The position numbers and the translations under genes were made by a program. Shown here one piece after another: positions 13,787 to 41,032 of a DNA stretch of 64,000 nt; position 1 is the stretch's first letter, and each line of letters opens with the position of its first letter. Origin of the DNA: Patescibacteria group bacterium (GTDB lineage Bacteria; Patescibacteriota; Patescibacteriia; Magasanikbacterales; GWA2-37-8); assembly GCA_041651015.1 (NCBI GenBank), contig JBAZKA010000002.1, positions 137,269 through 201,268 of the forward strand, given 5' to 3'. The notes beneath the pieces were generated by a model. The model was not told the DNA's origin. It saw only the letters and a list, made by a program, of their open reading frames with translations, and made no database searches.

Positions 13787-13871
13787 TGTCACACCTGTAC
13801 CCCTTGACACTTTTTTATTTTTCATATTTTATTTCTATTCTATTTCGGTTTTTCCAAACAGGAGGTACATT

Positions 13872-16718
13872 TTGTCGTTTGATTTTCAAACAATAGTTTC
13901 CGACATTTTAGAAAAACAATCTCTTGTTAGTTCTCCTTACCACAAAGCTTATCACGCATATATTGTAAATTGGCTAACAAACAGATATAAAGACAAATAT
14001 CCATATGTTACGCTTGTTGGTGTCGGTGGAACCGGTGTAGTTCTCGGCTTCTCTGACACCAGTTCTTCTCCTTTGAAATGTATTAAATACCCTGTTTCTT
14101 CATTTGGCACGACTGGCAATTTTACTCCAGGGCACGTCATCGAAACAGAAGCAAATCGTCTTACACAATTAAGTCATCAGAATATTTTACACGTTGACGA
14201 AGTAGGTAGTGTTCCTGTTGTTGATAATAGTGATGATTTCTCTCTAATCGACAACGAGGGCGAGAAGATCCCTTTCTTTGTAATGCCCTTCATACCCTGT
14301 AAAAATCTTGCTGATTTTCTTAAAGAAGATAGACCTATCGACCAAATCGTTTTGCTTACCATTCTCGCCCAAATTGCGGAAGCACTTGATTACGTACATC
14401 ATCACCATTTAATTCATCTCGATATCAAACCTGAAAACATTTTTGTTGATTTCACTTCTCCTGAGATTATTAACGCCAAACTCGCTGATTTTGGTTCGTG
14501 CAAAGAAATTTCTGTTGGTTCCACTTCCAAATCCATTGTCCTTTGCACAGATGGATATATACATCCAGATCTTTTAAACATTATTAAACAAGGGAACGAT
14601 AGCGATGCAAGACGTTTTCGCAATAAAGTTCCTAAAAGCATTTTTGATTCGAGATTTGATCGCTATTCTTTCGGAGCAACGATTTTGGATTCTGTTTACT
14701 TGTTTCTATCCAACAGTGTAGGAAGATCCGTCTCTCCCTATATGCTTCGTGCACTTCAGTTTATTTCTTTGAAGTGCGCCGATGGTTATGCAAATCACAT
14801 GGCAACACATCCTCGTCGCAAATATCTCGCACCTCCTGATCTTTATAACGATTTACTTTCAAAGAAAGTATCCTATGCTAGCACTACAGAAGTTCTCCGC
14901 GACATTCAAGCCGTTATCTCCAATGGGGATGGTTTCACAGAGCAGGAACTTCTTGATAGTTCCCAGGGAATCGTTTGTTTACCACCACGGTCTTTTGCGC
15001 CGTTCCCAGATAGAGTGCAACAGACTGTCGATTCCACGCCCGTTCGTCGCCTTTCAAGTATTTCACAGTTGGCTCTTGTATATCATGTATATCCAGGCGC
15101 TTCTTACACAAGAAAAGAACATACAATAGGTGTTTTTGCGACAGCCGCAGTTCTTTTGCGCCACATCATTAAAGATAGCAGAAATCCACTCGGCGTGCTA
15201 CTGCTTACACTAAAATGGCAGAGAGCTATACTGTTAAGCTCTCTCTGGCACGATATATCACATATTCCCTTAATGCATGAATTCGAAGATTCGATACCAG
15301 AATTGAGTCAAGGGTACTATTTTGCAAAAATTATGGAAAAGGACTTTGGTTCATTGGCTTTTCAAAAGGAAATTGATACTATTTTGGCTCTATGGAATCT
15401 TACCAGAATTGATGTTGTTTTGGTTCTCGGCAAAAAAAAGAACTTCGATTATCGTAAATGGAATCTTGACGAAGCCCAATGGGATTTTTTATGGGAACTT
15501 CCCGAAAGGCAGCTTTCTGCAAGTATTCTAAACAGTGCTGTTGATGCAGACAAAATGGATTATCTTCAAAGAGACGCTTTACATGTAGGTGTTCAATATG
15601 GTCACACAGTAGATCTTGAGAGGCTTTTCCGCAGAGCAACAGTCGCACTTACAGTGAATACAAATAAAAGGGATGGAACCACGATTACTTCCTTTAAATG
15701 CAGTTTAGGCTTCTGGAGTACAGGTGCAGCAGCTGCAGAAGCTGTAATTGAAGCACGACACAACATGTTCAATCAGGTTTATGCACATAGAACAGTTCGT
15801 GCTTCCAGGGCTATGCTGAATTATATTGCATGGAATTGGCGTTGTAGTATTGAGGAAGGAAAGACATATCGCCCTAATAGTTTGTTTGTAAGAGGTAGCT
15901 CTTTGTGCCCTAGCGGAAGCATCCTATCGCAGATGAGAAAACAGACTCAAAAGCAAATGCAAATGGATGAAATTGGTTCCACTGCCTTTGCTGAAAATAG
16001 AACACTGAATGTTTCCGAAAAACGTTTTGAAGATAAGCTGCGTGATAATTTGCCATATTTGGAATCGTCACTGATAAGATGGTTGGCGGCGCAATCCGGG
16101 AAAGACGAAGCGGTATTAATGGCCGAGTCGTTGATACAAAGAGAATTGTATAAGGAATTATTTGTAATAAAAATTGCGAAAGTTCAACAGTTGTTTGATG
16201 CAATATACTCAACAAAAAAGGACACCGAGAATGAATCAAAGTATGAAATGAACTTTCGGTGCAATAATTGGTTAGGGCTTATTGATTTCATAGAAGCAAA
16301 ACTTAAGGAATACATACAAAATGAAGAAAAAAACAAAAGCGTGGCTATATCAATGGAGCAACTAGAGAAATCGAAGTTGCCTTGTTTATTGGTTGATTTT
16401 GCGTTGCCTAAAACAATGCGTGGGCAACCTATACTATACCTGGTGAGCGAAGAAATGAGATCTGGTGTTGGTTGGGAAAAAGTTAGAAAACAAAATCCAA
16501 GCGGTGGAAAAGAAACTTTATCTGGCATGATCGTTGAGAAGTCGAGAATTTATGAGTTGTTCGGGGGAGGGGTATCGGAAAGCAAGTGGTTAACACCTGT
16601 GATTAGAGTATTCGCGTCGAAAGAGATAGCAAATGTATTACGCAGACATCTTCACGAAGAAACAGTAATCGAATGGCTAAATAGATATTTACAGGATGGA
16701 AGAGCTGTCGTGGAATAA
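13872..16718 (+). CDS. Hanks-type Ser/Thr protein kinase fused to dGTPase/SAMHD1-like HD domain
   Basis: Kinase motifs GVGGTGVV (Gly loop), HLDIKPENIF (catalytic loop), KLADFGS (DFG). C-terminal HD motifs H...LWHDISH and VDADKMDYLQRDALHVGV (dGTPase/SAMHD1 signature). aggagg RBS then TTG at 13872. The ORF is open from 13782. GC is ~38% inside a 65% GC region. Confidence 0.6.
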   Translation: MSFDFQTIVSDILEKQSLVSSPYHKAYHAYIVNWLTNRYKDKYPYVTLVGVGGTGVVLGFSDTSSSPLKCIKYPVSSFGTTGNFTPGHVIETEANRLTQLSHQNILHVDEVGSVPVVDNSDDFSLIDNEGEKIPFFVMPFIPCKNLADFLKEDRPIDQIVLLTILAQIAEALDYVHHHHLIHLDIKPENIFVDFTSPEIINAKLADFGSCKEISVGSTSKSIVLCTDGYIHPDLLNIIKQGNDSDARRFRNKVPKSIFDSRFDRYSFGATILDSVYLFLSNSVGRSVSPYMLRALQFISLKCADGYANHMATHPRRKYLAPPDLYNDLLSKKVSYASTTEVLRDIQAVISNGDGFTEQELLDSSQGIVCLPPRSFAPFPDRVQQTVDSTPVRRLSSISQLALVYHVYPGASYTRKEHTIGVFATAAVLLRHIIKDSRNPLGVLLLTLKWQRAILLSSLWHDISHIPLMHEFEDSIPELSQGYYFAKIMEKDFGSLAFQKEIDTILALWNLTRIDVVLVLGKKKNFDYRKWNLDEAQWDFLWELPERQLSASILNSAVDADKMDYLQRDALHVGVQYGHTVDLERLFRRATVALTVNTNKRDGTTITSFKCSLGFWSTGAAAAEAVIEARHNMFNQVYAHRTVRASRAMLNYIAWNWRCSIEEGKTYRPNSLFVRGSSLCPSGSILSQMRKQTQKQMQMDEIGSTAFAENRTLNVSEKRFEDKLRDNLPYLESSLIRWLAAQSGKDEAVLMAESLIQRELYKELFVIKIAKVQQLFDAIYSTKKDTENESKYEMNFRCNNWLGLIDFIEAKLKEYIQNEEKNKSVAISMEQLEKSKLPCLLVDFALPKTMRGQPILYLVSEEMRSGVGWEKVRKQNPSGGKETLSGMIVEKSRIYELFGGGVSESKWLTPVIRVFASKEIANVLRRHLHEETVIEWLNRYLQDGRAVVE

Positions 16719-24821: not shown

Positions 24822-25967
24822 TCATTGGATCTTTATCGGATAGTAACCAGCGGGACCTTTTTCATTTTTATCGATAGTAAAGTCGATGGTCATTCCACGT
24901 GACCACGCGATGGATTCGTCGAGTAGAATGAAGAATTTTTTGGTCCCCCCATCCTTCGTTTCACAAGATGCAAATCCGTAACCTTTTATAACTGTATCCA
25001 ATCTCCCTCTTAGAACTTCTCCAAATCTAATCACATAAGTAGCACGCCGACTTTTTCCTTTCGCAAGAGAAAGTGCAGGTATAAACCAGACTTCTTGGTC
25101 TACCTCTATTCCTAGTCCATTCTGAAACAAACAGTCTGGATTAAACCAGAAATCTTCATCTCCGGGGCCTGAGATGAAACCATAAGTATCTTTTAAGGAA
25201 GAAATGCGTCCCATTATCCACTCGATGTTTTCAGATTGATTTTCCCTGGGACTGATTTTAATCGATTCATCGTTTTGTTTCGATGGTGTATTGGCCAACA
25301 CAATGGTCTGGCCAAGACTCGTTTTTGTAATATAGGGTGTGCTGACTCCATATCTTTGGGCCGCCCACATTATTTCGTAATATCCAATAGGACGGGAGAA
25401 ACCTTTCGCTGTGACAAATTCCTCGTTGCCTTGGTAGTCGGAAACTTTTCGTTTAGGAGACACGTTTCTTCCGAGCCGGGATGAAATTCTATTCATCGCG
25501 GCAGCGGCTACTGTATCATTGTCGACAAAAACAGCGTTAGATTTTGCTGCACTGCAAAGACGAAAAGCCCTATCAGCTACTGTGCCTATATAGTCCTTGC
25601 TTCCTTCGGTTACATCAAATTCGATTACTTCACCATAAGACACACCAACCGAACAACTGCATGAAATCTGGTTTTGCTCCCTGGCAACTGCCATGGATTC
25701 CTGAATAAATATTGACCAGTTGATAGCTTCCGCCACATGATCCTCGGAAAAGACTGACATAGCACCATCACCAAGAAACTTTACTATTGTGCCTTTGTAC
25801 TCTTTGATGCTATTAAAAAGCAAATCGAAAAACCATGCATATTGTGTGAGCCATGTTGCTTCCGACTGTTGCTCTTTCATGCTCGTGGAATCGGTAAGAT
25901 CAACAGCGACTATTGTTTTCATAACTCTTGAATTTGGATCGCGAAAAGTTTCATGTAATGATGTCAT
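24822..25967 (-). CDS. class-III-nucleotidyl-cyclase-like domain fused to two cold-shock (CSD/OB) domains
   Basis: Cyclase-like VAVDLTDST, KFLGDGAM and GTVADRAFRL. Two CspA-like modules: DTYGFISGPGDEDFWFNPDCL...GIEVDQEVWF and IKGYGFASCETKDGGTKKFFILLDESI...TIDFTIDKNEKGPAG. GC ~40%. Confidence 0.55.
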   Translation of the reverse strand: MTSLHETFRDPNSRVMKTIVAVDLTDSTSMKEQQSEATWLTQYAWFFDLLFNSIKEYKGTIVKFLGDGAMSVFSEDHVAEAINWSIFIQESMAVAREQNQISCSCSVGVSYGEVIEFDVTEGSKDYIGTVADRAFRLCSAAKSNAVFVDNDTVAAAAMNRISSRLGRNVSPKRKVSDYQGNEEFVTAKGFSRPIGYYEIMWAAQRYGVSTPYITKTSLGQTIVLANTPSKQNDESIKISPRENQSENIEWIMGRISSLKDTYGFISGPGDEDFWFNPDCLFQNGLGIEVDQEVWFIPALSLAKGKSRRATYVIRFGEVLRGRLDTVIKGYGFASCETKDGGTKKFFILLDESIAWSRGMTIDFTIDKNEKGPAGYYPIKIQ

Positions 25968-26877
25968 GGACCCTCCTTTGGAATGATGTTGTCATTCAAT
26001 ATATAAACACGCGTACTAGTTTATCTCCTTCATTGGTGAAAACTTCCTTGGTGGTGCTCGAATGGAATTATGCGTTTGTTTTCTTTACAAGAATCCGTTC
26101 CTGTGGTGAGCCCCCGTTGGGGCACGGTGGAAAGGGCTCGCCCTTAACACACGTAGTTTCTTTACCGCAAAGTTTGCATCCGAATACGCCGGACTCAGGA
26201 ACGACTTGGACAGATTTGTACCCCATTTTGAACTCCTATGTTACCGACATCCCTAAAGCGGGATATTGGATAATTATCCACGCGAAAAATCGAAATAAAT
26301 CGATTGCTTCTAACAGGGAGGAAGAGGCAAGCTTCAGAAACTTCAACTAGGATGTGAAATGTAGTTCGTCTTGAGAAATATGTTTTTCCGCATGCAGATT
26401 TTCGGAAACCATATCCTTTCTTCCATTGTGGGAAATGCCACCACTGCAAAACACAGAACATAACGAAATTACCAAAAGGCAAACATCGGAATAATAATCG
26501 CACCTCGTGGGAGAAAATCAAGAGGTACAGGTGTGACAATGATAAGCTAAAAATCGTTATACGCATAAAAGACGAGGGCTAATAACGGAATACGAAAACA
26601 AACCTCTGGAAAAATGAGATACGCGATCAGTGTTCCTTCAGTTTTTGTGTCCGAATCGGAGTCGATATCGGTGTTGTCGTCCTCAACATGAAGAGCGATT
26701 TCACCCGTATTTTGTGGATGATCAATGTCTCGCTTCCGAGACGATCGCCCACTTCGGCATCGGCGACTGCCGCTGCGGCGATATTTTTCATTTCATCGTC
26801 ATCGCCCTTGCTCTCCACACCGGACGCGATCCAAAATCCGATCTGCATTTCCGGAAAGCGACCGCGGAGGGACTTCG

Positions 26878-27327
26878 ATGGATACCCAGATCCTTTCAAC
26901 CGAAGACATTGCGCTTCAGAGCATCGACGAGCTTCAAGACCGAATGGAGCGTATCACCCTGTCGTTTTACAAACGGATGTCCTCGATGTCCGAGTCCTCC
27001 CTTTCTCTCATCGCCTTCACCGCGCTTCGCTACATCCACGCGTACGGCCCCGCGACCGTCGGGAAAATATTCTCGGCCATCGCTCGCTCGCAGAGCACGA
27101 CCTCCGAGCTCCTCACGCGTTTACGCAAGCACGGCCTTGTTGAGCACAATAGGAACGACAAGGATGGCCGAGTGGTAAATATTCGCATCACAGGCAAAGG
27201 GCGGAGCGCTTTGGCGAGCGCCGAGGCCAAGCGCGACGAGGCCTGGCGCGATCTGCTCGGTCATCTCGATGAAAACGATCGGCAGACCTTGATCGCCGCG
27301 ATGCGGCAAATCTGCGCGATACTCTGA
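26878..27327 (+). CDS. MarR-family transcriptional regulator
   Basis: MarR-like wHTH (ATVGKIFSAIARSQSTTSELLTRLRKHGLVEHNRNDKDGRVVNIRITGKGR). ggaggg RBS with ATG at 26878. Confidence 0.6.
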   Translation: MDTQILSTEDIALQSIDELQDRMERITLSFYKRMSSMSESSLSLIAFTALRYIHAYGPATVGKIFSAIARSQSTTSELLTRLRKHGLVEHNRNDKDGRVVNIRITGKGRSALASAEAKRDEAWRDLLGHLDENDRQTLIAAMRQICAIL

Positions 27328-28301: not shown

Positions 28302-28760
28302 ATGAATCTGGAAGGTCAGAAGTATTCGAGCGAAATGGTTTCTCTTATGATCGAAGCTTTGGGCGGAGACGCTCAGGTGGAGAAGATCGTCAAACAGAAG
28401 CGCATCGCCGCCGTGGTGAAGGCGGGGACGACGGTCGGGGAAGCTTGCGACAAGGCGCAGGAAGAGGGTTGGCTCGACTGGTTCCGCGCCATGACCATGG
28501 GCGAGATGGCGGCAATGCTCGGCGGGAAAGGGTCATCCCAAAAGGCGTCCGGCACTCGGATGAACAAAGAGGAAGTAGTCGCCCTGTGCGGCAAGGTCAT
28601 CGCCTTCTTGCAGGGGAAACCGGGAACCAGGGTCGGTGAAATCTCCTCCGCCGTGGGGGCCGAATCCATCAAGGTCGCGGCCCAGCTCAGAAAACTGATC
28701 ACCGAAGGCAAGGTCAGGAGCGAGGGCGCGAAGATCAAGACGGTGTATTTTTTGAAGTAG
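28302..28760 (+). CDS. hypothetical protein, possible winged-helix DNA-binding C-terminus
   Basis: ggagg RBS. C-terminal LCGKVIAFLQGKPGTRVGEISSAVG...LRKLITEGKV. Confidence 0.4.
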   Translation: MNLEGQKYSSEMVSLMIEALGGDAQVEKIVKQKRIAAVVKAGTTVGEACDKAQEEGWLDWFRAMTMGEMAAMLGGKGSSQKASGTRMNKEEVVALCGKVIAFLQGKPGTRVGEISSAVGAESIKVAAQLRKLITEGKVRSEGAKIKTVYFLK

Positions 28761-28829: not shown

Positions 28830-29597
28830 TTGCAATATCGCTTTCCGCATTTAAAGGGTACACGTGTACCTCTTGTGAATTCTGAAAATCGTCATACTAT
28901 GTCTACAGGTGATATTCTCATGCCCCAATTTACTACCCAATCATACCCATACGATGTTGAGGATCAAACAATTCTTGTTGTCGACGACGATGTCATGGTT
29001 CTGCAAATGATTCGCAGAACGCTGAATAACAGCGGGTTTGCCAATGTGTTGACAACCGCGGATGCAGCGACCGCACTGGTAATCATTGATGGCTGTCGTC
29101 CTGCCCTTGCGCTCGTGGATCTCGATCTCGGCCCAGACTCGCAAAACGGAATCGGCCTGATAAAACAGCTAAAGCCAAGTCCGGATGGGCCGATCCCTGT
29201 GGTTCTTTCCGGCAATAAAACGCAGGAGCAGTTTTTCAAGGCAGCACGTGCCGGAGCTGTCGACTATTTTGTCAAAGGACCGTGTATCGATCTCTCCAAA
29301 GAAGTGAGACGGCTGCTGAATGGAGAACGTGGTGTCACGAAAGAACGTTCTTTGCCCGAGATCGTTTCCGATCTTGGTTATCTGCGCTCTTTTGGCTTAA
29401 CAAGAAAAGAGATTGAAATTCTCACTGAGTTCGCCAATGGGTTTCCCAAGATAAGTGATCTGGCCAAACGCCAACAGCAACCGCCAATACAGGTGAGAAA
29501 GTATTTTTCAAGTATCTACGAGAAGCTCAACATAACCGATATTCACCAACTTATTCGCACACTGATGATTTGCGAATTTTTCAACAGAGATAACTGA
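28830..29597 (+). CDS. two-component response regulator, LuxR/FixJ-type HTH
   Basis: Receiver domain (ILVVDDD...ALVDLDLGPDS). C-terminal LuxR HTH (LTRKEIEILTEFANGF...KISDLAKRQ...VRKYFSSIYEKL). Real start probably 28899 or 28920. Confidence 0.65.
   Translation: MQYRFPHLKGTRVPLVNSENRHTMSTGDILMPQFTTQSYPYDVEDQTILVVDDDVMVLQMIRRTLNNSGFANVLTTADAATALVIIDGCRPALALVDLDLGPDSQNGIGLIKQLKPSPDGPIPVVLSGNKTQEQFFKAARAGAVDYFVKGPCIDLSKEVRRLLNGERGVTKERSLPEIVSDLGYLRSFGLTRKEIEILTEFANGFPKISDLAKRQQQPPIQVRKYFSSIYEKLNITDIHQLIRTLMICEFFNRDN
28857..28870. promoter_or_regulatory. perfect 14-bp palindrome GGTACACGTGTACC (operator-like)
   Basis: Lies ~30-60 bp upstream of the likely start of the response-regulator gene. Same motif family as sites at 32683, 32886, 36381 and 36592. 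Confidence 0.5.
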
Positions 29598-29684
29598 GTA
29601 ATCATTGAATATGTTTCGGTGATCCAATTTGAAAACATATTTACTCAACTTGGTGCAAGAAGAACTCGACGGAGGGATTAATCA

Positions 29685-31349
29685 ATGCATATCCATCAAT
29701 ATATTACAAATGGATATATCGCATTATTGTTGATTGTTTTAAATGCCTGTCAAGGCGTTCAACAAAACTACGGCCCGCATGACACCGAGACCAATGCGGA
29801 CGCGGCGCCGGACACCGACACTGATGCAGATGCCGACAGCGATGCGGACAGTGAATCCGAGACCGTCGATACGGACTTCACGAGCGAGGCGATCCCGACG
29901 ACGTGCGCCGAGGCGGCGGAGCAGCAGACGTCTGTTGGGTGCGAATTCTTCGCGGCGGATTTGGACAACGCCTCTCAGAACGACCACATGACCTACGCCA
30001 TCGTGGTCTCCAATCCGCAGGAAGTGCAAAGCGCCCAGATCACTCTATGGGACGGCACCGAGAGCGCCATCTACACGGCGACGCTGGCGCCCGGCGAGCT
30101 CCATGTCATCGACGTTGCGTGCGATTTGGGCTGTCTGGTGCCACCGCACGAAATCGACAAGCAGGGATTCTCTCGAGGGGCCGGTTTTCGCCTCGCCTCC
30201 GACGTCCCGATTCTCGTCTATCAATGGAATACCTACGGCATCGATGAGGCCAGCGTAGATGCCTCACTACTTTTACCGACCGTCAGCTTGGGCAGAAGCT
30301 ACATCGTCGCGGCGTGGGGACAGGGCAATAGCATCAACATGCCGACCAGTGTCTCCCAGGTCACAGTCGTCGCCATCGAGGACGATACGCACGTCTCGTT
30401 TATCCCCTCGACGGACGTTCCGGATTTCGGCGACGCGGGGCCGTACGGGGCGGGTGTGGAGACGGAGCCGGTGAGGCTCGACGCGTTCGACATAATCGCG
30501 CTCGGCCCAGCGATCTTGGATGATGACGTCACAGGCACCGTCGTTCGGTCGGATAAGCCGGTAGTCGTGTTCGGCGGGCACGCGTGCGCCACAGTGCCCG
30601 ATGTGTACTATCAGGCCTGCGATCACCTGGAGGAACAACTCTTCCCGTTGTCAGCGTGGGGAACGAGCTCTGTATTGGCGCGGCACGCTCCGCGCCAGAA
30701 CTGCATGTACGAGGATCTGGTCGTCTGGCGGGTCATTGCGGGTGCGGACGACATGGCCGTGACGTTCGACCCGCCGGCGCCCGATCCCGCGGGGAGCGCG
30801 TACTACTTTGAAAAGCAAGGTGACGTGCTCGAGTTCATGGCGTCGGACAACTATTACGCCGAGGGCCTGTTCGAGAGCCCCGCGGACCCGACCGAGCCCG
30901 AGGCACCGTTCCTCGCGTATCAGTTGATGACGGGCGCCGACTACCCTGACTGCTTCCTCAACGAAACGAGGAGGGAAGGCGACCCGATGATGCTCCAGGC
31001 CGCGCCGGCCTGGCAGTACTTGGACAGGTACGTGTTCAACACGGACAACGTGTTCGACTTCGCCTATGACCGCATCACCATTGTGAGACCCACGGGTGCG
31101 CACGTGGTGCTGGACTGCCTGGGGCTCATCCCGGACTCGCAGTTCACGGCGGTCGGCTCGAGCGGTTGGGAGGTCGCCTACGTCGTCATCGACGATCCCG
31201 ACAACACGACCGGTTGCGAGGACGGTGCGCACGTCCTCACGGCTTCGGCCCCCGTGGGCCTGTCCGTCGTGGGAACTGGCGATGGCGTGTCATACGGCTA
31301 TATGGGCGGCACGGGCGTGGCGCCGATCAACCCGGTGGTGGTGGAATAG
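29685..31349 (+). CDS. secreted lipoprotein, unknown function
   Basis: Lipobox LLLIVLNAC. Acidic D/T/S linker. 554 aa with no recognised catalytic motif. Confidence 0.5.
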   Translation: MHIHQYITNGYIALLLIVLNACQGVQQNYGPHDTETNADAAPDTDTDADADSDADSESETVDTDFTSEAIPTTCAEAAEQQTSVGCEFFAADLDNASQNDHMTYAIVVSNPQEVQSAQITLWDGTESAIYTATLAPGELHVIDVACDLGCLVPPHEIDKQGFSRGAGFRLASDVPILVYQWNTYGIDEASVDASLLLPTVSLGRSYIVAAWGQGNSINMPTSVSQVTVVAIEDDTHVSFIPSTDVPDFGDAGPYGAGVETEPVRLDAFDIIALGPAILDDDVTGTVVRSDKPVVVFGGHACATVPDVYYQACDHLEEQLFPLSAWGTSSVLARHAPRQNCMYEDLVVWRVIAGADDMAVTFDPPAPDPAGSAYYFEKQGDVLEFMASDNYYAEGLFESPADPTEPEAPFLAYQLMTGADYPDCFLNETRREGDPMMLQAAPAWQYLDRYVFNTDNVFDFAYDRITIVRPTGAHVVLDCLGLIPDSQFTAVGSSGWEVAYVVIDDPDNTTGCEDGAHVLTASAPVGLSVVGTGDGVSYGYMGGTGVAPINPVVVE

Positions 31350-31357
31350 CGGAGCGC

Positions 31358-31984
31358 CTATTGCTCCTCGGCATATTGTCCGGTAGCGTTGCGCCGGCGC
31401 ATCTCCTCAAGCGGAAGTTTGAAACCATCACGACCAAGCCACAAGTAAGATTTATAAGACCCATCCTGTTCATGCTCGCCTGTGAAGTAGTTCGATGCGC
31501 CTTCCCATGGCATGAAAGTAAGGTATCGCTGGTATTCCACAAACGCCTCAGTGGTAGCATGTTGATAGGTGATCTTGCACAGAGTTTTACCACAGGTAGA
31601 CTCAACAAACGCCGTGTCAATGAGTTTGTTTTCTACAATGAATCGCGCCGCGTCTTTGCTATACTGCGCGCCAGCGGGTTTGTCGACAGGCTCTTGGGAA
31701 AGCAGGGTATCCAGTTGGCCCGGCACTTCGGCCCACCCGGTCGTTTCCTCATCTAAAACTTTTTTTTGTGCAGCAGCAATCGCCACCAACTTCGCTTTTG
31801 TTTCCGAGATGCGTTTATCTTGATTGCTTTGTACCGTACCTTTGGGACGTTGTGGTGTGAAAATAGAATTATGTTGAACGCCAGTTGAATGCGATCTTGC
31901 CGAGTAGGGCAATGCCCTTGCTACGCAAATAGCAATTACAATGGCTATCGCTGCCATCAAGATCAGCAGGAATTTTTTTTTCAT
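31358..31984 (-). CDS. secreted protein, cassette member A1
   Basis: Signal peptide. Paralog of 34756..35391 (shared C-terminal Cys pair and GxxLPLxE...R tail). Confidence 0.5.
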   Translation of the reverse strand: MKKKFLLILMAAIAIVIAICVARALPYSARSHSTGVQHNSIFTPQRPKGTVQSNQDKRISETKAKLVAIAAAQKKVLDEETTGWAEVPGQLDTLLSQEPVDKPAGAQYSKDAARFIVENKLIDTAFVESTCGKTLCKITYQHATTEAFVEYQRYLTFMPWEGASNYFTGEHEQDGSYKSYLWLGRDGFKLPLEEMRRRNATGQYAEEQ

Positions 31985-32008
31985 GGGAATTGATGTTGTG
32001 TTTTACGA

Positions 32009-32548
32009 TTAGTCCATCCAGTATTCAATAACCTTCACGATCTGGGTACTGCCACTGTACGCAGAAGCACCGCAGCGCGCGACCTGATCATCATAAGTCC
32101 ATATCGAACCGCCATTGTAGGTTCTGCCCTGAATAATGTAATTTGCATCGGTGCACCTGAAACCATCGTTGCCTACTAATTGCGTTACATCTGCAGCCGT
32201 CCACGCTTCTTTCCAAATGTCGTAATTTTGAAAACTGTAGAGAGGAGAAGTTTCCCCGGAATCTAGCTCCATGCAGCAAGTCCAATTCACTCCGTATCCG
32301 TTCGCCGTGTCATGCCCGGTAGGCTGCCAACGTTCACAGGTTCCTATGCCGCTATAATCACATGGACTAATCGATTGATCGAGATCCCCCTCTGATGCCC
32401 ACCAAATCGAACCGGTAGTACAAACCTTTGTTCCTGCATCCTGAAGAAGACAGATGCGAAAGCTCCTGGCTTCCACTTTGAGCGCGCTAGCGTTGAGCGA
32501 GACGAGCATTAACCCTAGGGCCGCAGTCATGAGGAACAGTTTCTTCAT
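32009..32548 (-). CDS. secreted Cys-rich protein, cassette member B1
   Basis: Signal peptide ...SALKVEARSFRIC. Paralog of 35472..36095 (conserved IEYWMD/IEYRMDE C-terminus). Confidence 0.5.
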   Translation of the reverse strand: MKKLFLMTAALGLMLVSLNASALKVEARSFRICLLQDAGTKVCTTGSIWWASEGDLDQSISPCDYSGIGTCERWQPTGHDTANGYGVNWTCCMELDSGETSPLYSFQNYDIWKEAWTAADVTQLVGNDGFRCTDANYIIQGRTYNGGSIWTYDDQVARCGASAYSGSTQIVKVIEYWMD

Positions 32549-33052
32549 CTTGCACCTTCCATTTTTTGCCCGAGATGGGCGGTTGCGGTTTCGGTCGTGG
32601 AAACGTCCCGAAAGCCTTTCAGTGCTTTTTCATTAGAGCACCATCTACATCGTGCAACCATGCGAAGATGCCCGTCAACTCGTACAGGTGTACCCTCGCG
32701 AAGCGGTGCGAGTAGAAGGAGAAAAGCGGTGAGAATTTTGAAAATACATTGAATATCAGATAGATAGGAACGGGTCGATGAGTCTTCTCGGCCAAGTACT
32801 TCTGGTGGAAAAATCACGCGAGAAGAGGGAATAGCATCACCTCCTGACGGATAGAAACTGCGTAACTTGTTATATGTATTGACATTTTAGCGCCGGTACA
32901 GGTGTGCCTTTTTCTGTGACAAAATTTCCTAAAAAAAGCGATCCAATATCCCTCCAAGACAGCGACTGTGCACAGCGACCACTTTGCCAGAAACACCTTC
33001 TCGTCCCGACGCATTCACCAACTTGAATGCCCCTGTCGGCTGCGCAGCGTTG

Positions 33053-34732
33053 TCATTGCACCCTGTACTTCGCAACGAACGGATGCTCGTGGACGCCATC
33101 GCACGTCACGGGATTGCCGTCGTCGTCGTACCCGAACGTCGCGATCTCCGGCACCGAGGAATTGTTGTTGTAGTTCCCACCGACGACGAACTCGTCCGCG
33201 CCTACCGATGTGACGCTGCTCGGCAAGATGCAGCTTTCCAGGTCGGCCGAGGGGATGAGCCCCGCCCACGCGAGCGCGCCGCCGAAACCGTACCGTGCGA
33301 TGAACGCGTGTTCGAGTCCTGTGTACTCTAAAGAGAATATGGTCTCTTCCGGTTCGCCGTAGCCGAACGTCGCCGTCGGACCGCCCACGAAGCCGACCGC
33401 GTAAAGACCTTCCGTGTCCGCGGCAACGCCGTACACGCGGTCGTTGCCGCCGGACAGACCGACGCTCTTCGCCCACGGAAAATCGCCGTCGGGAGCGCTC
33501 GCGGCGATGAAGCCGGATTCGGATTCGTCCAGAGAAAGTGTCTGGTCGCCGAATGTGGCCTCCCCTTGATAATAGCCGACGAGCACGGCGCCGCTCCCAA
33601 GAGCGGCGACATTCCATCCGTACTCTTCGGTTCCTTCGCTGGAGCCAGCGCGCACGGCCCATTGCAGCGTCCCATCATCGACCGCATAGCGCGCCACGAA
33701 GATGTCACCCGCCCCTTCAACGGTGAACTTCGTCTCGTTCGTCTCCCCCGAGCCGAAGGTGACCGTGTCGCCCGCTGTTTCGTCGAGGATACCGCCGACC
33801 AGCACGATCTCGTTGCCCGAAACGAGCGCCAACCCCGAGCCATAAGCGAACCCGCCGGTCGTGCCCTTGGCCCACAGGAGCGCACCGTCCGCATTATAAC
33901 GAGCGAGAAATGCTCCCTGCGAGGGCAATGTCGTTTCATTCGACTCACCCTCGCCGAACACCGCCGGCCCACCTACGAATCCTGAGACGATGACCGTGTC
34001 GTCAGGCGCCGCGACGATGTCAGACGACGAGTCGGTATAGTCACCATCAATCGATCCAACCGAGATGGCCCACAGGAGCGCGCCGTCCGCACTGTAGCGA
34101 GCAAGGAAACAGTCCCGTCCGTCGTCGACGGCCGCCAACTGAATGTCGGCGCCACTTGGGGATTCGAGTGTCACCGTGCCGTATATCGCGCCACTGATTG
34201 CGAGATCACCCTTGTCGGTCTCAACGACGCCCAACGCGCCAATCTGCGATTCTTCGAAGCTGCCGACCGAGATGTAGTCCGCGGACCAGGCGATCGCCCC
34301 GCCCGACGCCAGAATAGTCAAAAAAGAAGAGATGGTTGGATATCTGACTTGGCTTGCAACAGCGATGCGCCCGTCGTTCAGCACCACGACGCGGGCGACA
34401 CCGCCCTCGTAGGCGAGCCCCGGATCGCCGAGACAAGCCACCCATTCGAGCGCGAACGGCCCGGGCGAAACGAACGTCCCGCCGTCGTCTTCGCTCCCGG
34501 CGTCCGCGGCCGCGTCCGTCCCGGCGTCGGCGCCCGCATCCGGACCGGCGTCCATCAAATCATCCGTGTCGCCCCCGTCGGGCGCTCCGCTGTGGTGCTT
34601 TTCCGAGCACGATGAGCAGCCAGCGAGTTGCCACAAGATGGCCGAACTGAGCACTATCCCAATAAACAATTCCGGCGGGCACCGTCTCCGACGCTGTTCA
34701 CGAACGAGCAAATTCGTCATGACTTCACCCAC
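33053..34732 (-). CDS. beta-propeller repeat lipoprotein (SBBP-like repeats)
   Basis: Lipobox LAGCSS. Acidic linker. At least six repeats of the type FLARYxADGALLWA / FVARYAVDDGTLQWA. Confidence 0.55.
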   Translation of the reverse strand: MGEVMTNLLVREQRRRRCPPELFIGIVLSSAILWQLAGCSSCSEKHHSGAPDGGDTDDLMDAGPDAGADAGTDAAADAGSEDDGGTFVSPGPFALEWVACLGDPGLAYEGGVARVVVLNDGRIAVASQVRYPTISSFLTILASGGAIAWSADYISVGSFEESQIGALGVVETDKGDLAISGAIYGTVTLESPSGADIQLAAVDDGRDCFLARYSADGALLWAISVGSIDGDYTDSSSDIVAAPDDTVIVSGFVGGPAVFGEGESNETTLPSQGAFLARYNADGALLWAKGTTGGFAYGSGLALVSGNEIVLVGGILDETAGDTVTFGSGETNETKFTVEGAGDIFVARYAVDDGTLQWAVRAGSSEGTEEYGWNVAALGSGAVLVGYYQGEATFGDQTLSLDESESGFIAASAPDGDFPWAKSVGLSGGNDRVYGVAADTEGLYAVGFVGGPTATFGYGEPEETIFSLEYTGLEHAFIARYGFGGALAWAGLIPSADLESCILPSSVTSVGADEFVVGGNYNNNSSVPEIATFGYDDDGNPVTCDGVHEHPFVAKYRVQ

Positions 34733-34755
34733 CTGATTAGGTGTCTTGAGTACGG

Positions 34756-35391
34756 TTATTCTTGTAATGTTTTTTGTCTGTCATGCAACTCTTTCAGTGG
34801 GAGTTCGTAGCCGTTCGTCCCCATCCAAAACGTGCTGCTCCATGTATCATCATTGCTTGGTGAACCGTGAAAATAGTTGGAGTCGCCGAACCAGAGGAAT
34901 ATACTATTTGCTTTTTGATACGATTTGTAATCGTCACTATTGTTGTGCGTGAATTTCACACGACATATTTCGCCACCGCATTGGGCTTCGACCAACGCTG
35001 TCCCTTCAAGCTTGGCGTCCTTCAGAAATTGTTGGGCAGTTGCACGCATAGAATCGCTGGCAAGGATATCATTTTTTTGGAGTTTAAAAAGATGATCGAG
35101 CTCTTCGGGGACATTCTCCCACGCTGAAGCGGTTTTCTCTTCCTCGGGGCGAGGCGAAACCATCGCGGCTTTCATCTTTTTTAAAAAAAGCTCTCTTTTT
35201 TTACTGTCCGGTGTTTGTGAAGAAATTTCCCCATCGGACACAGACATGGATCGGGGCGTCTGTAAAGTGTTCTCTCGTGGTGACGATGTTGATTTTCGAG
35301 AGATGGCGACGAGGGCTCCCGTGGCAATTACGGACACCAACAAAGCTGCAACGAGGTATCTTCGATTCATCGCTTGTTTGCCTTTTGCCAA
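34756..35391 (-). CDS. secreted protein, cassette member A2
   Basis: Signal peptide. Paralog of 31358..31984. Confidence 0.5.
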   Translation of the reverse strand: MAKGKQAMNRRYLVAALLVSVIATGALVAISRKSTSSPRENTLQTPRSMSVSDGEISSQTPDSKKRELFLKKMKAAMVSPRPEEEKTASAWENVPEELDHLFKLQKNDILASDSMRATAQQFLKDAKLEGTALVEAQCGGEICRVKFTHNNSDDYKSYQKANSIFLWFGDSNYFHGSPSNDDTWSSTFWMGTNGYELPLKELHDRQKTLQE

Positions 35392-35471
35392 TTGGTCAAT
35401 GACAGCAGAAAATGAAAAATGAACGGAAGCGCTTGTGTACGCGCTTCCGTTCCAAGTTGCTGCATTGAATG

Positions 35472-36095
35472 TTATTCGTCCATTCTATATTCAATGCCCA
35501 TTGTTTTGTAAGAACCCGAAGTGTTCACCACGGTCATTTTGCATGCCATAACGCCCATATCGGAAGTATAATTATGATCATCAACGTCTTCAAACTCGAT
35601 GCCCTGATAGACCGTATCAGTAGTTGTGCAATAGTTGACGGAAGAACCCTCTGTCCAGGTCACAATACTATCGATTTCGCCAGCTCCCCATTGAGTCCAG
35701 CCAACAGGAAGAGCGGGAAGAGGAAGTGGGTCAGCGACGGTGTTATAAAATATAAATCCTCCGCCTGTGATGGTCTCCGCTGATGTCTTTACAAAACAGC
35801 ATGATGACGACACAGCCTGGACGTCATTATAGTACGTCACGTCTATGGGGCTCCAGACTTCGCATGAGGCCCAATCGGCATTGCCCGGGTTTTCGCAGGT
35901 TGTATCTGTTCTCTTATACAGAGTAGCACTATTGCCTTTGTGGTAGGTGACGTACCATCCATCTCGACACGCAGTATCGGTGTTGTTCACGGCGGTACAG
36001 AAGGTGATCGCCCGAGCCTCCGCGCTGAGCGCCGAGGCGTCATGACAGAAGAAATAGACTCCCAAACTTGCTACCAACAGAGACAGTTTCCGCAT
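35472..36095 (-). CDS. secreted Cys-rich protein, cassette member B2
   Basis: Internal start MRKLSLLVASLG inside ORF 35472..36248. Paralog of B1. Confidence 0.45.
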   Translation of the reverse strand: MRKLSLLVASLGVYFFCHDASALSAEARAITFCTAVNNTDTACRDGWYVTYHKGNSATLYKRTDTTCENPGNADWASCEVWSPIDVTYYNDVQAVSSSCCFVKTSAETITGGGFIFYNTVADPLPLPALPVGWTQWGAGEIDSIVTWTEGSSVNYCTTTDTVYQGIEFEDVDDHNYTSDMGVMACKMTVVNTSGSYKTMGIEYRMDE

Positions 36096-36999
36096 TTTTC
36101 GCCATCCTTCTTTTTGGCAACTTTGCCAGTTGAATTCCGCCACAGCATAATTGCTCCGACGGGAACATCTGATACGAATTAAAAACGAATTACAGGCTAT
36201 TCTGGAGCCTTCCCTCCTTACTTCGAAGCACGACATCGGGTCGTGCACGCGTGTGAAGTCGTTTCGGTTTGGTTCGCGTCAAGTTGTTCACTGTATTTTT
36301 TCCAAAGCATTCGTGTTGCCGAAGTCGAACGTGAACTTTACGAAATAATCGAACAGCCGATGAGGAGAAGTCGTCAAGACGTACACCTGTACCCTCCCGA
36401 GAATGTCGGAACAGGGAAGAAACAGGGTGGAGATGACAGAAAGATGAGCAAAAACAAATAGAAACGAAAGGTGGAATACAAGAACCGTAAGACCTGTAAA
36501 GACTCGAATAGTCGGGGGAAAGCTTACTGAATCATCTGTTGCATCGCATGAAAGCGGGATAACCCATGGAAATCATGTCATGTTTAGATTGGGTACAGGT
36601 GTACCAATCATTTTTTCTTATTTTGCGAAACTTTTTTGTAACAAGCCTGAAAAGGGGCTCCGCCCCTTTTGAACCCTGGCCTTAGTTGATCGGGATGTCG
36701 GCGAACGGGATGTTGTCGAAGACGATCGCGAGGATGAACACGGCCACCACTGGCGCGTGTTTTGTTTTTGCCTTCTCCTCTTGCTGGGTATTTTAGCGAA
36801 TCGGCGGCACGGCTGTGCAAGGTAGTGCTCGCTTGGCTTCGCCTCCACCTTGACAGCGTGCCGCATCGATTCGCTTCTCTTGGCAGCAAGAGGGAGAAGG
36901 CAGGAGCGAACCTGCGCCGACAAAGGTCGGGTGAGCGAACACGGGGTTGCCCGGGCGTTCATCACCGGTGCGGGATCGCTTCAAGCCAGGCTCTCCGTA

Positions 37000-38127: not shown

Positions 38128-39369
38128 TTAGACACTCACCACGCCTTCCGTTGCCGTACTGTTGCCGTAAACACGCGCCCCGTTGCCATCCAAGACGGCA
38201 ACGGCGTCGGTCACCGATTCCGGTGACAGGTGCGCGTAGCGGAGCGTCATCTGCATGGTGGCGTGCCCGAGTTGTTCCTGAATCGTCTTGAGCGGCACGC
38301 CGCGCATCGCGAGATGCGAGGCGTAGGTGTGCCGCAGAACGTGCCAGCCGATCTCGCGCACGTTCGCGAGCTCGCAAACATGCCGCAGCGCCCAATCCGA
38401 GCTGTTCGAAGAAATCGCCGAGCCGTCTGCTGTTGAAAACACGAGCTGTGCGCCGATCGTGCGACGCGCCGCGAGCGCGCTGTCCGTTGTGTCGTTCACG
38501 GTGCCGCCATCCTCGTACGCCCGCCGCCGTTCATTTTCACGCGCGGCTCGCTTGCACTGTTCGATCACGGCAACGGTTGCCGGCGTGAGGTACACGGTGC
38601 GCACCTTGTTGTTCTTCGGCGAACCGATGATGCCCTTGGCCACGGCGCGCGAGATGCGCAGATACGGCGATCGTCCCTTGAGCTGGACATCGCCCCACCT
38701 GAGTTCGAACAGCTCCCCGCGCCTGAGTCCGGTGCGCATGGCGACGAAGAACGGCGCGTGCCACAGCGGCGCTTTCGCGGCTGCGGTCGCGAGAAGCCGC
38801 TCCGCCTCCTCGAACGAGAGGTAGTCGAACGACGGTGGTGGGCACTTTGGAAAACGGCAGCGCGGCGCGCGCTCGAGATGTCCGACTTCGGTGGCGTACC
38901 ACAAGAGCCGCGACAAGACGGCGAGCGCGTTCTTCACGGTCTTGGGCGAGAGCCCCGAGGCGAGCAGGTCTTTCTTCATCTTGTCGATGTCGAGCGTGTT
39001 GATCTCATCGAGCCGCTTCAATCCCATGGCCGGCAGGATGTAGAGCCGGAGCATCGATTGTTTGGAGGTCACCTCGGACGGCTTGTTCTCGGTCTTCGCG
39101 TACAACTCGATGAACACTTTTGAGAACGCTTCGACCGTCGGCATTTCTTCTTGTTCTTCCGCTCCTTTCTCGCGGTACGTGCCGTCGCTGAGCGCCCGGA
39201 AAATCGCGCGCTCCTCGGCCTCGGCTTCGCGCCGAGTCGTGCCTTGAGCGACGCGCCGAATGCGTTCGCGGCGGCCGTCCGCGTGTCTGTATGCAAAGTC
39301 GATCAAAAGAATCTCCCGCACCGTGCCGGTCTTTTTGTCGGTGCGATTTTCGCGTCTCACGCTCATCAC
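38128..39369 (-). CDS. tyrosine recombinase / phage-type integrase
   Basis: C-terminal catalytic region HVLRHTYASHLAMRGVPLKTIQEQLGHATMQMTLRYAHL (R..H..R..Y). N-terminal SAM-like domain. Confidence 0.85.
   Translation of the reverse strand: MMSVRRENRTDKKTGTVREILLIDFAYRHADGRRERIRRVAQGTTRREAEAEERAIFRALSDGTYREKGAEEQEEMPTVEAFSKVFIELYAKTENKPSEVTSKQSMLRLYILPAMGLKRLDEINTLDIDKMKKDLLASGLSPKTVKNALAVLSRLLWYATEVGHLERAPRCRFPKCPPPSFDYLSFEEAERLLATAAAKAPLWHAPFFVAMRTGLRRGELFELRWGDVQLKGRSPYLRISRAVAKGIIGSPKNNKVRTVYLTPATVAVIEQCKRAARENERRRAYEDGGTVNDTTDSALAARRTIGAQLVFSTADGSAISSNSSDWALRHVCELANVREIGWHVLRHTYASHLAMRGVPLKTIQEQLGHATMQMTLRYAHLSPESVTDAVAVLDGNGARVYGNSTATEGVVSV
38146..38168. repeat. 23-bp direct repeat copy 2
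   Basis: See copy 1. Overlaps the last ~8 codons of the integrase. Confidence 0.5.
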
Positions 39370-39752
39370 TCACCTCTGCGATGAACGGGACGCGGCTTTG
39401 CCGCGAACCAAGATATCACAGATGGGCGGTGCACGCGGAAGGTTCGCCCGCAACGACGCACTCCGGGCAAGTCCCCGCGGCGGATCATCGCGTAGACGGT
39501 CTTGCGATCGAGTCGCAAATATTCGGCGGTCTCTTCAATCGACAGAAATTCGAAGCGCGCGAAACAGTCGTCTTTTTCGATGTCATCGCCGGAGTCGGGG
39601 ATGCTGCGCGATGTCCGCAGAATGTCTCCGTCATCGCCCGCCCGCCCACTCGTTGCGCGCTTCTCGGCGGAAACGGCGTCCGCGACGATCCCGTTCGCGC
39701 CGTCGGTGTCGGCGTTGAAACGGGGGCTACTCGGAGGTTCGGATCGATCCAT
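39366..39752 (-). CDS. excisionase-like HTH DNA-binding protein
   Basis: C-terminal LSIEETAEYLRLDRKTVYAMIRRGDLPGVRRCGRTFRV (Xis/MerR-type HTH). Overlaps the integrase start by 4 nt. Confidence 0.6.
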   Translation of the reverse strand: MDRSEPPSSPRFNADTDGANGIVADAVSAEKRATSGRAGDDGDILRTSRSIPDSGDDIEKDDCFARFEFLSIEETAEYLRLDRKTVYAMIRRGDLPGVRRCGRTFRVHRPSVISWFAAKPRPVHRRGE

Positions 39753-39764
39753 GTTCCTTTCCTT

Positions 39765-40676
39765 TCAACCTCGCCCTGTCCTGGCAGAGCCTCGTCTATC
39801 CACCCGTCTATCCGCGGCGAGGCGCGTCTTTGGAAACCCGCGCCGTTCGCGGTTCCGCGCGATCGCGGTGGCGGGTGTATTAGGGCCTCTGGCCCGTCCC
39901 CCCGCCGCGCCGCCTACCTCGGTCGGTTCCCGCACCGGTCGCGCGTTGACCTCGTCCACGAGGAACACGCGGCCGAACTCCTCGAGCCCGTGCGACGCGA
40001 GCGACTCCGTGATTGTCGTTCGTCGCGCTTCGCTCAGCACCACGAACCACAGGGCGTCGATGACGCCGTGCTCGGCCGCGCCGAGATACCTCGCCAGCTT
40101 GTCGCCGATCACAGACTTCACCGGCTCGGTGCCGCAGTCCGCTTCGACCGCGACGAAGACCGCGCCCTCCGGTGTTGCGAACTCGGCCAGGCCGTCCGGC
40201 TCGATGTGCCAGTCCGCGAGCCCGATCTCGGCCGCGAGCGCGCCGCCGGCGTTGGCCCAGCGGACGAGAGGCGATCCTCGTTTCTCTCCGAGCGCGGCCG
40301 CGTAGAGCCTGGCATCCACCACCATGAGCCGATGCGTGAGAGTCGACATCTGGATCGGGCCGGCGAGCCGCAATCGTCCTTCCAGATCCGGACGCGTGCT
40401 CTCGGCGAGCCGCAGTCCGCGCTTGGTCAGCGAAACGAGATTGGGGCTGTTCGCGCCGGTAACGGCCACGTTGATAAACCCCGCATCAAACAAACGGCGC
40501 AATCGCCGACGGGCGCGATCTTCGCTCGGGAAGAGCGCACGCGCCGCTTGCGATGTGGACATCGCGCCGCACAAACCGACGAGCGTGAGCACGTCGATGT
40601 CTCTCTCCTGAATCTCAAATCGCGACGAGACTCGGACGCGGCCCGTGCGCGAGGGCTTGGGTGAGCGCGCGGTCAT
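39765..40676 (-). CDS. replication-relaxation family protein (second copy)
   Basis: N-terminal ERDIDVLTLVGLCGAMSTSQAARALFPSED..RARRRLRRLFDAGFI, similar in pattern to 4824..5741. Confidence 0.45.
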   Translation of the reverse strand: MTARSPKPSRTGRVRVSSRFEIQERDIDVLTLVGLCGAMSTSQAARALFPSEDRARRRLRRLFDAGFINVAVTGANSPNLVSLTKRGLRLAESTRPDLEGRLRLAGPIQMSTLTHRLMVVDARLYAAALGEKRGSPLVRWANAGGALAAEIGLADWHIEPDGLAEFATPEGAVFVAVEADCGTEPVKSVIGDKLARYLGAAEHGVIDALWFVVLSEARRTTITESLASHGLEEFGRVFLVDEVNARPVREPTEVGGAAGGRARGPNTPATAIARNRERRGFPKTRLAADRRVDRRGSARTGRG

Positions 40677-41032
40677 ATGTGGATCCTGAACGGGTTGAGC
40701 ACACTGAGGCCGCAGACCGGGCAGTTCACGTAGGGCGCGATCGGCGCCCTACATTCCGGGTTTTCGCATTTCAGGATGGACGAGTTTTCGTAGGTGTAGC
40801 CGCACGAGGTGCACTCGTACACCTGACCGACGAGCGAAAAGACATGACCGCGAGGGCAAGTGACGACACCGCCGCGAATGGCGCTTCGCGCTCCCCACAG
40901 CCCGACGATGAGCTTGAAGACAAAACGCAGACCACTGAGCAACCAGAACGCGATCTCTGTCATCGTAACGACGACATTCGCGGCCAGGGTGACGAGAAAC
41001 TTCACGATGTTGAAAACGTTCTTCATGGTCAA
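40673..41032 (-). CDS. membrane protein with C-terminal zinc ribbon
   Basis: Two TM helices then CPRGH...CTSCG...CENPEC...CPVCG. Confidence 0.4.
   Translation of the reverse strand: MTMKNVFNIVKFLVTLAANVVVTMTEIAFWLLSGLRFVFKLIVGLWGARSAIRGGVVTCPRGHVFSLVGQVYECTSCGYTYENSSILKCENPECRAPIAPYVNCPVCGLSVLNPFRIHI

Follow-up and report, generated by a model that had tools for sequence, protein, structure and literature searches.

The stretch analysed here, a 64,000-nucleotide segment of contig JBAZKA010000002.1 that we call the window, carries seven copies of a short, palindrome-like element placed between open reading frames (ORFs) and close to predicted promoters. Judged by their sequence, the palindromes are real, conserved protein-binding sites just upstream of promoters, and we consider it probable, with moderate confidence, that they are the operators of an autoregulated activator, namely the adjacent response regulator of the NarL/FixJ type. 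Enrichment of the sites, their intergenic position and orientation, their fixed coupling to a −35 element, their conservation among paralogs and orthologs, and the domain make-up of the regulator were each established directly and are set out below.

The system is most likely an ordinary kind of bacterial regulon governed by an unstudied regulator family. For a rare and unstudied response-regulator subfamily, our data provide a testable DNA recognition sequence, a promoter architecture and a first predicted regulon; the sites can guide the search for further targets in related metagenome bins, and they permit the design of reporters or of probes for DNA affinity purification sequencing (DAP-seq) without a cultured host. 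They also place cargo genes of mobile elements, in a genome labelled Patescibacteria, under one predicted transcriptional input. Added interest comes from the location of this regulator copy on a mobile element with no kinase gene nearby, from two defence-like predicted targets and from relatives that carry another taxon label.

Sites in the window and their promoter geometry

Exact matches to GTACANNTGTAC occur at four positions in the 64-kb window (28858, 32682, 36381 and 36593), where 0.03 would be expected, and a copy with one mismatch at 32896 (GTACAGGTGTGC) raises the count at up to one mismatch to five, against 0.42 expected. Neither count was equalled in any of 100 dinucleotide-preserving shuffles of the window, which served as the null model. 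A weight matrix made from oriented sites returned seven loci at 17–25 bits from the same DNA (chance expectation, about 1.9 hits of at least 10 bits), while the extended pattern GTCACNNNTGTACNNNTTG, which includes the TTG of the −35 hexamer, gave six hits at up to two mismatches against 0.91 expected; five of the six are the promoters of the regulator, of two secreted-protein cassettes (1 and 2), of a kinase-like gene and of a cyclase-like gene pair. A weak matrix hit on the minus strand at 5798 (GTGTCACAGGTGTGTCA, 12.1 bits) lacks the TTG and was left out of the site count. The seven sites, two canonical and five palindromic, are these:

28857..28870, plus strand: operator at the regulator promoter, GGTACACGTGTACC, followed by TC, a −35-like TTGTGA (28873–28878), a 16-nt spacer and a −10-like TACTAT (28895–28900)
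32681..32694, minus strand: proximal operator of cassette 1, GGTACACCTGTACG, followed by AG and a −35-like TTGACG (32678–32673)
32895..32908, strand unassigned: distal site of cassette 1, GGTACAGGTGTGCC, 214 bp upstream of the proximal site
36380..36393, minus strand: proximal operator of cassette 2, GGTACAGGTGTACG, followed by TC and a −35-like TTGACG (36377–36372)
36592..36605, strand unassigned: distal site of cassette 2, the perfect palindrome GGTACAGGTGTACC, 212 bp upstream of the proximal site
13788..13809, plus strand: canonical operator and −35 of the kinase-like gene, GTCACACCTGTAC-CCC-TTGACA; 25.3 bits, the top matrix score in the window
26516..26537, minus strand: canonical operator and −35 of the cyclase-like pair, GTCACACCTGTAC-CTC-TTGATT; 24.9 bits, with the site proper at 26525–26537

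The palindromic group consists of one site at the regulator's own promoter plus a proximal and a distal site for each cassette. A preliminary description of this DNA had reported palindromes at five positions; all five are borne out, with the 14-mers as given at 28857–28870, 32895–32908 and 36592–36605, and most coordinates held, though two were slightly off (32683 becomes 32682, and 32886 becomes 32895). The half-site that it noted near 13790 is real (CACACCTGTAC, 13790–13800) but belongs to the full canonical site of the kinase-like gene, and its list overlooked the full canonical site on the minus strand at 26525–26537. It was right that the sites are intergenic, as all seven lie between ORFs, and that they stand in pairs upstream of the cassettes (two per cassette, 212–214 bp apart, before the first minus-strand gene).

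The copy that the preliminary description listed near 3160 is not a site. It is CACACCTGTCA, an arm of a separate inverted repeat at 3141–3161 (ACAGGTG-N7-CACCTGT, the full form being ACAGGTG-ATTCGCA-CACCTGT) directly upstream of an ORF starting at 3179. This repeat has a CAGGTG core in common with the operator and possesses neither the TGTAC half nor the coupling to a −35 element.

Where a −35-like hexamer is present, the site ends 2–3 nt before it and is oriented toward the downstream gene. Across 179.6 kb of non-redundant window and homolog DNA we found 32 oriented hits where about one is expected, and in 23 of them a TTG stands exactly 3 nt past TGTAC; the most constant part of the motif is the right-hand TGTAC plus the SNC-TTG that follows. 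The succession of 14-mer, 2 nt, hexamer and 16–17-nt spacer puts the site centre 31.5–32 bp before the −10 element (31.5 bp ahead of TACTAT at the regulator promoter), and the operator lies at a fixed distance upstream of −35 and −10 and runs with its gene. The operator at 13788 directly follows a terminator-like hairpin and stands 63 nt ahead of the TTG start at 13872. No TTG hexamer follows the distal cassette sites, which on the minus strand share N4-CTAAA and, further on, a GTTA about 20 nt downstream. A sigma-54 promoter was considered by eye and rejected, as TGTCAC-N5-TACC lacks the GG/GC dinucleotides.

The palindrome put forward in the preliminary description holds within the window, but the consensus of the family as a whole has less symmetry: GTCAC-N3-TGTAC, set at a constant distance from −35, or GTCAC-N3-TGTAC-SNC-TTGAC in its wider form. 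The element measures 13–14 bp, reading GGTACA-NN-TGTACC in the window and (T)GTCAC-N3-TGTAC(C/G) across the regulator family, and the palindromic variant has a 7-2-7 layout, GGGTACA-NN-TGTACCY. The window form is a local, more palindromic variant of the consensus, and the perfect palindrome is specific to the window.

We think it highly unlikely that the sites are repeats without function, be they remains of the duplication of the cassettes, palindromes that arose by chance, or small hairpins or terminators. The cassettes are indeed duplicates (their proteins p179 and p207 are 26% identical, p208 and p211 28%), and a consensus scan flags both distal sites as weak plus-strand terminator-like hairpins with a 5-bp stem and a T-rich tail. 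A protein identity of 26–28%, however, makes the duplication old, old enough for neutral DNA to be randomised, and the site blocks alone survive. Compared in register, the cassette upstream regions are 30–33% identical overall, and only two 20-nt blocks rise above background, one at the proximal site (32670–32711, 17/20) and one at the distal site (32883–32917, 16/20), with a maximum of 14/20 at 549 other offsets; the proximal–distal spacing is also kept between the cassettes (214 versus 212 bp). Such blocks look like footprints, not like remnants of duplication. Moreover, the motif recurs at non-duplicated genes of the window (13788, 26537 and 28857) and in unrelated contigs. As terminators the distal sites were rejected: a stem of only 5 bp makes a poor terminator, there is no plus-strand gene upstream and none ends there. 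Rfam and transfer RNA (tRNA) scans returned nothing near the sites.

The two checks named in the preliminary description speak for its proposal of a dimeric transcription-factor operator defining a small regulon, which is supported by enrichment and by site conservation. The excess over shuffled background is strong, and the motif is conserved both between the diverged cassettes, where the site blocks alone are kept, and at the regulator promoter of homolog loci with 44–61% identity, where its core is found.

The response regulator and its homolog loci

The candidate binder is encoded amid the palindromic sites. On the plus strand the gene order is a MarR-family gene, an HU-like gene, an ORF of 152 amino acids (aa), the response regulator and a 554-aa protein:

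28920..29597, plus strand: response regulator of 225 aa, the candidate binder, with a receiver domain and a putative, divergent LuxR/GerE-type helix-turn-helix (HTH)
26878–27327, plus strand: MarR-family gene, start probably at 26878
28302–28760, plus strand: 152-aa ORF with a weak winged-helix match

The regulator (accession MFA5127808.1; genes of the window bear locus tags WC457_022xx) is best started at ATG 28920, because its 225 aa then equal the ortholog length. Its receiver domain matches Pfam Response_reg above cutoff (E-value 8e-15), and residues D22/D23, D67, S97 and K119 are invariant in 10 homologs; all phospho-acceptor residues are present, and the receiver is intact. An AlphaFold2 model (predicted local distance difference test score, pLDDT, 73) places helices at 162–172, 178–186, 193–202 and 208–220 after a linker, and its top full-length Foldseek matches are RcsB, DesR, EvgA, StyR, NarL, FixJ, LiaR and VraR (E-values 1e-7 to 1e-6 over about 200–210 aligned columns). 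The overall fold in the model is that of solved family members, a receiver plus a helical DNA-binding domain, though the C-terminal domain is modelled with moderate confidence only (pLDDT 59–79); its 80 residues are strongly conserved within the family and divergent from known HTH domains. Over its full length the protein aligns in NCBIfam with FixJ and MctR, though with scores far below the cutoffs. Because of its receiver, its fold and these below-cutoff alignments, we assign it to the NarL/FixJ type and to no named family.

The regulator family is rare: a search of 5.8 billion proteins gave 15 hits, every one of metagenomic origin. Its relatives all come from 'Deltaproteobacteria' metagenome-assembled genomes (MAGs) or unbinned metagenomes, and a search of a genome collection returned no more than two MAG contigs labelled 'Deltaproteobacteria' and a single, distant receiver protein from Herbaspirillum. 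A search of viral contigs found neither a relative of the regulator nor an exact copy of the extended motif. Our survey of sites in homolog loci, which covered every homolog with available DNA (P0002, P0004 and P0005, three of the closest, and P0017 lie outside it), found the site in every locus whose regulator is 44–61% identical (L001, L003, L009, L010, L011, L015, L016, L017 and L019), facing the regulator gene, a divergent operon and/or the gene just downstream. In every one of these loci with readable promoter DNA there is a site at the regulator's own promoter; since such a placement, kept across 44–61% identity, is the usual signature of autoregulation, we think it probable that the regulator is autoregulated. 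L006, the most distant homolog (38%), has one site nearby and at its own promoter only a degenerate element. The core form in homolog loci is (A)TGTCACA-SS-TGTAC-SNC-TTGAC (for example TGTCACAGGTGTACCTCTTGACA, TGTCACACCTGTACGTCTTGACG and TGTCACAGGTGTACGGCTTGTGC), and in more distant homologs the centre of GTCAC-N3-TGTAC is GTT (L017), TTT (L019), GGG (L009) or TAT (L006).

In the orthologs, the regulator gene and an operon are transcribed divergently, and between them stand two sites that face outward, one per promoter; past the regulator gene there is usually a third, oriented toward the following gene, which varies among loci. The divergent operon is conserved in most relatives and encodes a 112-aa protein, a 220–281-aa protein (about 262) and a 397–444-aa membrane protein with a C-terminal HATPase_c domain, followed in most loci by a 511–585-aa B12-binding radical-SAM (S-adenosylmethionine) enzyme (coordinates 329–4508 in L010, 4050–8044 in L001, 875–4868 in L003 and 7411–9786 in L006). 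It carries the same operator, Pfam annotates only its HATPase_c and B12/radical-SAM domains, and it might represent a signalling or biosynthetic module not yet described, in which the HATPase_c protein is probably the cognate kinase. None of these four proteins has a match in the 64-kb window; for the HATPase_c protein the search was by tblastn, and a kinase elsewhere in the genome is possible.

L010 also contains three regulator paralogs within 3 kb (5718–7314; 225, 230 and 213 aa, with 37–39% identity to the window protein), and a canonical site precedes each operon, which suggests that the paralogs form a small network of cross- or autoregulation through one common operator. A Zn_ribbon_2 protein of 117–118 aa lies near the regulator both in the window (23850–24206) and in L010 (7311–7664), with 40% identity between the two. 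In L010 it is the first gene of the operon that includes a paralogous regulator, behind a canonical site (7758-); upstream of the window gene, no site was found.

Among DNA-binding proteins, the regulator alone is encoded in every site-bearing locus. This supports the suggestion in the preliminary description that the adjacent LuxR-type response regulator, possibly autoregulated, is a candidate binder; we consider it the likely one and infer binding from co-occurrence and geometry. Several observations weigh against this assignment. The match to Pfam GerE falls below cutoff (E-value 1e-3; 19.1 bits versus 23.5), and a profile of the C-terminal 80 residues matches only VraR-type DNA-binding domains, weakly (E-values 0.4–0.8), if in the expected register. 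Dyad symmetry in the family consensus is no more than weak, with GTCACA on the left mirroring the right arm at four of six positions, and the sequence can just as well be taken for a direct repeat, TGTCAC/TGTACC. No histidine kinase gene adjoins the window regulator. The homolog loci were gathered through the regulator, so that its co-occurrence with the sites is partly by construction. Finally, most cargo promoters combine a near-consensus −35 with a poor −10, which is not the classic mark of rescue by a −35-proximal activator.

The regulator might instead be merely a target, with the sites bound by another transcription factor: the MarR-family protein, the 152-aa winged-helix protein, the 112-aa protein of the ortholog operon or a protein encoded elsewhere. 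We regard this as unlikely. MarR-family proteins do bind short palindromes, P0002, the closest homolog (68% identity), likewise has MarR and HU-like genes upstream, and both the atypical HTH of the regulator and the way in which the loci were gathered leave room for another binder. Yet L001, L003, L010 and L011, with 3–6 sites each, lack MarR, HU and the 152-aa ORF, a result that leaves MarR, the other candidate of the preliminary description, unsupported. The proteins of the ortholog operon, for their part, are absent from a window with seven sites, while the regulator is encoded in all loci and, at no less than 44% identity, has a site at its own promoter wherever this can be read.

With the regulator as an autoregulated activator, a phosphorylated dimer would bind the 13–14-bp element and, centred about 32 bp upstream of −10 (near −44.5), would contact RNA polymerase and activate transcription. 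Its targets would be its own operon including the 554-aa surface protein (positive autoregulation), the two cassettes, the kinase-like gene and a pair encoding 52-aa and 381-aa proteins, all of them within a mosaic of integrated mobile elements. The distal cassette sites, which lack a recognisable sigma-70-type −35, would be auxiliary, acting through cooperative binding or looping, or would serve a weak second promoter.

We infer activation over repression, as we do the role of the distal sites. The same regulator could act as a repressor, its binding next to −35 occluding RNA polymerase and its dimers at the cassettes looping the 212–214 bp between them; to this we assign a low probability. 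Near-consensus −35 hexamers (TTGACA/G) at cargo promoters would need no activator, and the two sites per cassette at a conserved distance, like the divergent ortholog pairs 196–316 bp apart, are what a looping repressor might use. The ortholog spacings, however, are not helically phased, and several promoters have a single site: a search for partners up to 350 bp away from 13788, 26537, 28857 and a number of ortholog sites found none. Nor does the site ever overlap the −35/−10 core or the predicted start; it always ends 2 nt before −35, and this fixed spacing is the position from which NarL/LuxR-type proteins activate (−44.5 for NarL; PMC9314961). The weak −10 elements that accompany the good −35 hexamers also fit a need for help.

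Predicted target genes and their genomic setting

The preliminary description put the regulator and the secreted cassettes in the regulon. These remain its predicted members, and two non-secreted genes are predicted to belong to it as well, through the sites at 13788 and 26537. The predicted targets beyond the regulator are as follows:

29685..31349, plus strand: 554-aa lipoprotein-like protein with an IgGFc_binding domain (Pfam PF17517, E-value 1.8e-61) and an LNAC lipobox
31358..32548, minus strand: cassette 1, with p179 (32548 to 32009), Cys-rich and with a Sec signal peptide, and p208 (31984 to 31358), with an N-terminal membrane anchor
33053..36095, minus strand: cassette 2 operon, with p207, p211 (35391 to 34756) and p559 (34732 to 33053), delimited from translations and Shine-Dalgarno sequences
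13872..16718, plus strand: 948-aa Ser/Thr-kinase-like protein, predicted regulon member (Pfam Pkinase, E-value 7e-23)
24822..26226, minus strand: predicted regulon pair of a 52-aa zinc-ribbon-like ORF (26226 to 26068) and a 381-aa protein (25967 to 24822), delimited from ORFs and Shine-Dalgarno sequences

The gene for the 554-aa IgGFc_binding protein lies directly downstream of the regulator gene and is probably co-transcribed with it; the two minus-strand cassettes converge on this regulator operon. In cassette 2, p207 has a signal peptide (start probably ATG 36095), and p559 is a 559-aa protein resembling a beta-propeller lipoprotein, with a match below cutoff to the NCBIfam SBBP-repeat lipoprotein (E-value 3e-10). 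The cassette 1 proteins belong to no Pfam or NCBIfam family, and a structure prediction for p179 was unusable (pLDDT 35). A search with the p208/p211 family gave only three hits, two of them from this same genome, and the cassette families appear almost unique to it. Conservation of sites upstream of cassette homologs, a check named in the preliminary description, could be followed in L001 only: a p211 homolog (E-value 7e-6) lies downstream of the regulator ortholog there, behind a site-like element at 9333 that is degenerate, and neither p179 nor p207 has a detectable relative in that locus.

Two of the predicted targets resemble components of anti-phage defence, through matches that rest on generic kinase and cyclase domains. 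The 948-aa protein matches the PADLOC mad6 and PD-T4-6 kinase models (E-values 6e-24 to 1e-9), and the 381-aa protein has a cyclase-like N-terminal domain (Guanylate_cyc weak; PADLOC Pycsar cyclase PycC, E-value 1e-9). The C-terminal half of the latter resembles, by eye, two cold-shock-like domains.

The region is a mosaic of integrated mobile elements that contains a relaxase, two coupling-protein-like ATPases, a primase, RadC, two SprT-like genes, an integrase and a recombinase. A first set of mobile-element genes spans 4476–13748 (Replic_Relax relaxase, TrwB-like coupling protein, M78 peptidase, primase, RadC and SprT) and a second 38128–50718 (tyrosine integrase with an HTH_17 excisionase-like gene, HerA/TraG-like ATPase, SprT and serine recombinase), the latter ending beside tRNA-Arg and tRNA-Lys genes (50672–50845); the arrangement resembles that of integrative elements inserted at a tRNA site in tandem or one within the other. 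Core genes (RNase III, ParA/ParB and a RelA/SpoT-like protein) follow from 51 kb. G+C content of about 40–45% in the core genes (51–64 kb) alternates with 58–64% in blocks at 4–13.7, 18–24, 30–34 and 38–44 kb. The host contig, 241 kb long and assigned to the window by exact-sequence look-up, is deposited as 'MAG: Patescibacteria group bacterium', and the regulator's relatives are 'Deltaproteobacteria' MAGs or unbinned; together with the G+C alternation, this suggests recently acquired foreign DNA in a genome of the candidate phyla radiation.

Three further features were observed in the window. A G+C-rich, bidirectional terminator-like hairpin, AAAAGGGGC-TCC-GCCCCTTTT, lies at 36652–36673, 47 nt beyond the distal site of cassette 2. 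Within about 430 nt of apparently non-coding DNA is an imperfect 27-nt inverted repeat (36777–36803 and 36867–36893) with no Rfam match. At the left edge of the island, a DUF6602 protein beside a calcineurin-like phosphoesterase (836–2883; PADLOC PD-(D/E)xK, E-value 3e-20, and NucC nuclease, E-value 6e-11) may be another defence-type gene pair.

A more far-reaching idea, which we offer tentatively and think improbable as it stands, is that an uncharacterised two-component regulator without its kinase, carried on a mobile element, joins surface or secreted and defence-like cargo to one signal. The ortholog operon might make and sense a small molecule, and the mobile copy of the regulator could eavesdrop on this system or be cross-regulated by it.

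Comparison with known systems

Among published motifs, the cyanobacterial LexA consensus RGTACNNNDGTWCB is met letter for letter by the palindromic GGTACAGGTGTACC (PMC3091678), and LexA papers were the only matches to the motif strings in the searched literature of 8 million papers, from which the recognition sequence itself is absent. That the sites are SOS boxes of the cyanobacterial or Gram-positive LexA type is nevertheless extremely unlikely. The family-wide GTCAC-N3-TGTAC form does not fit the box, no ORF of the window matches LexA_DNA_bind or Peptidase_S24, and no LexA gene is present there. The sites keep a fixed distance upstream of −35 and do not lie over the promoter core, and the targets (secreted proteins, a kinase and a cyclase) are not repair functions.

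NarL offers a closer parallel. It recognises inverted heptamers 2 bp apart ('7-2-7'), and a single such site at −44.5, 32 bp upstream of −10, suffices for activation (PMC9314961). As with Escherichia coli NarL and NarP, the window sites are two inverted heptamers with a 2-bp gap, GGGTACA-NN-TGTACCY, and they are centred about 32 bp upstream of −10, at the activating position of NarL (PMC9314961). The candidate binder resembles these proteins too, combining a receiver with what its model suggests is a four-helix LuxR/GerE-type HTH. Unlike NarL, however, the regulator reaches only 28 bits against the 250-bit cutoff of the NarL equivalog, its family consensus is only partly symmetric, and the window has neither a kinase gene near the regulator nor a link to nitrate. 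The half-sites differ as well, that of NarL being TACYYMT, to which GGTACA/GTCACA are unrelated.

At RcsB-box and lux-box promoters, a dimer with a GerE-type HTH acts as an activator from a dyad directly upstream of or overlapping −35. The predicted dimer would likewise sit at a dyad directly upstream of −35, as for RcsB, LuxR and TraR, and the solved structure closest to the regulator model is that of RcsB. These systems have other operator sequences, and at 20 bp the lux box is longer; where LuxR and TraR have an autoinducer-binding domain the regulator has a receiver, and it scores 29.5 bits against the 235-bit cutoff for RcsB. Activation by a two-component regulator from a dyad adjacent to −35 is a textbook mechanism, and the regulator that we propose to use it here stands outside the named families and has a recognition sequence of its own.

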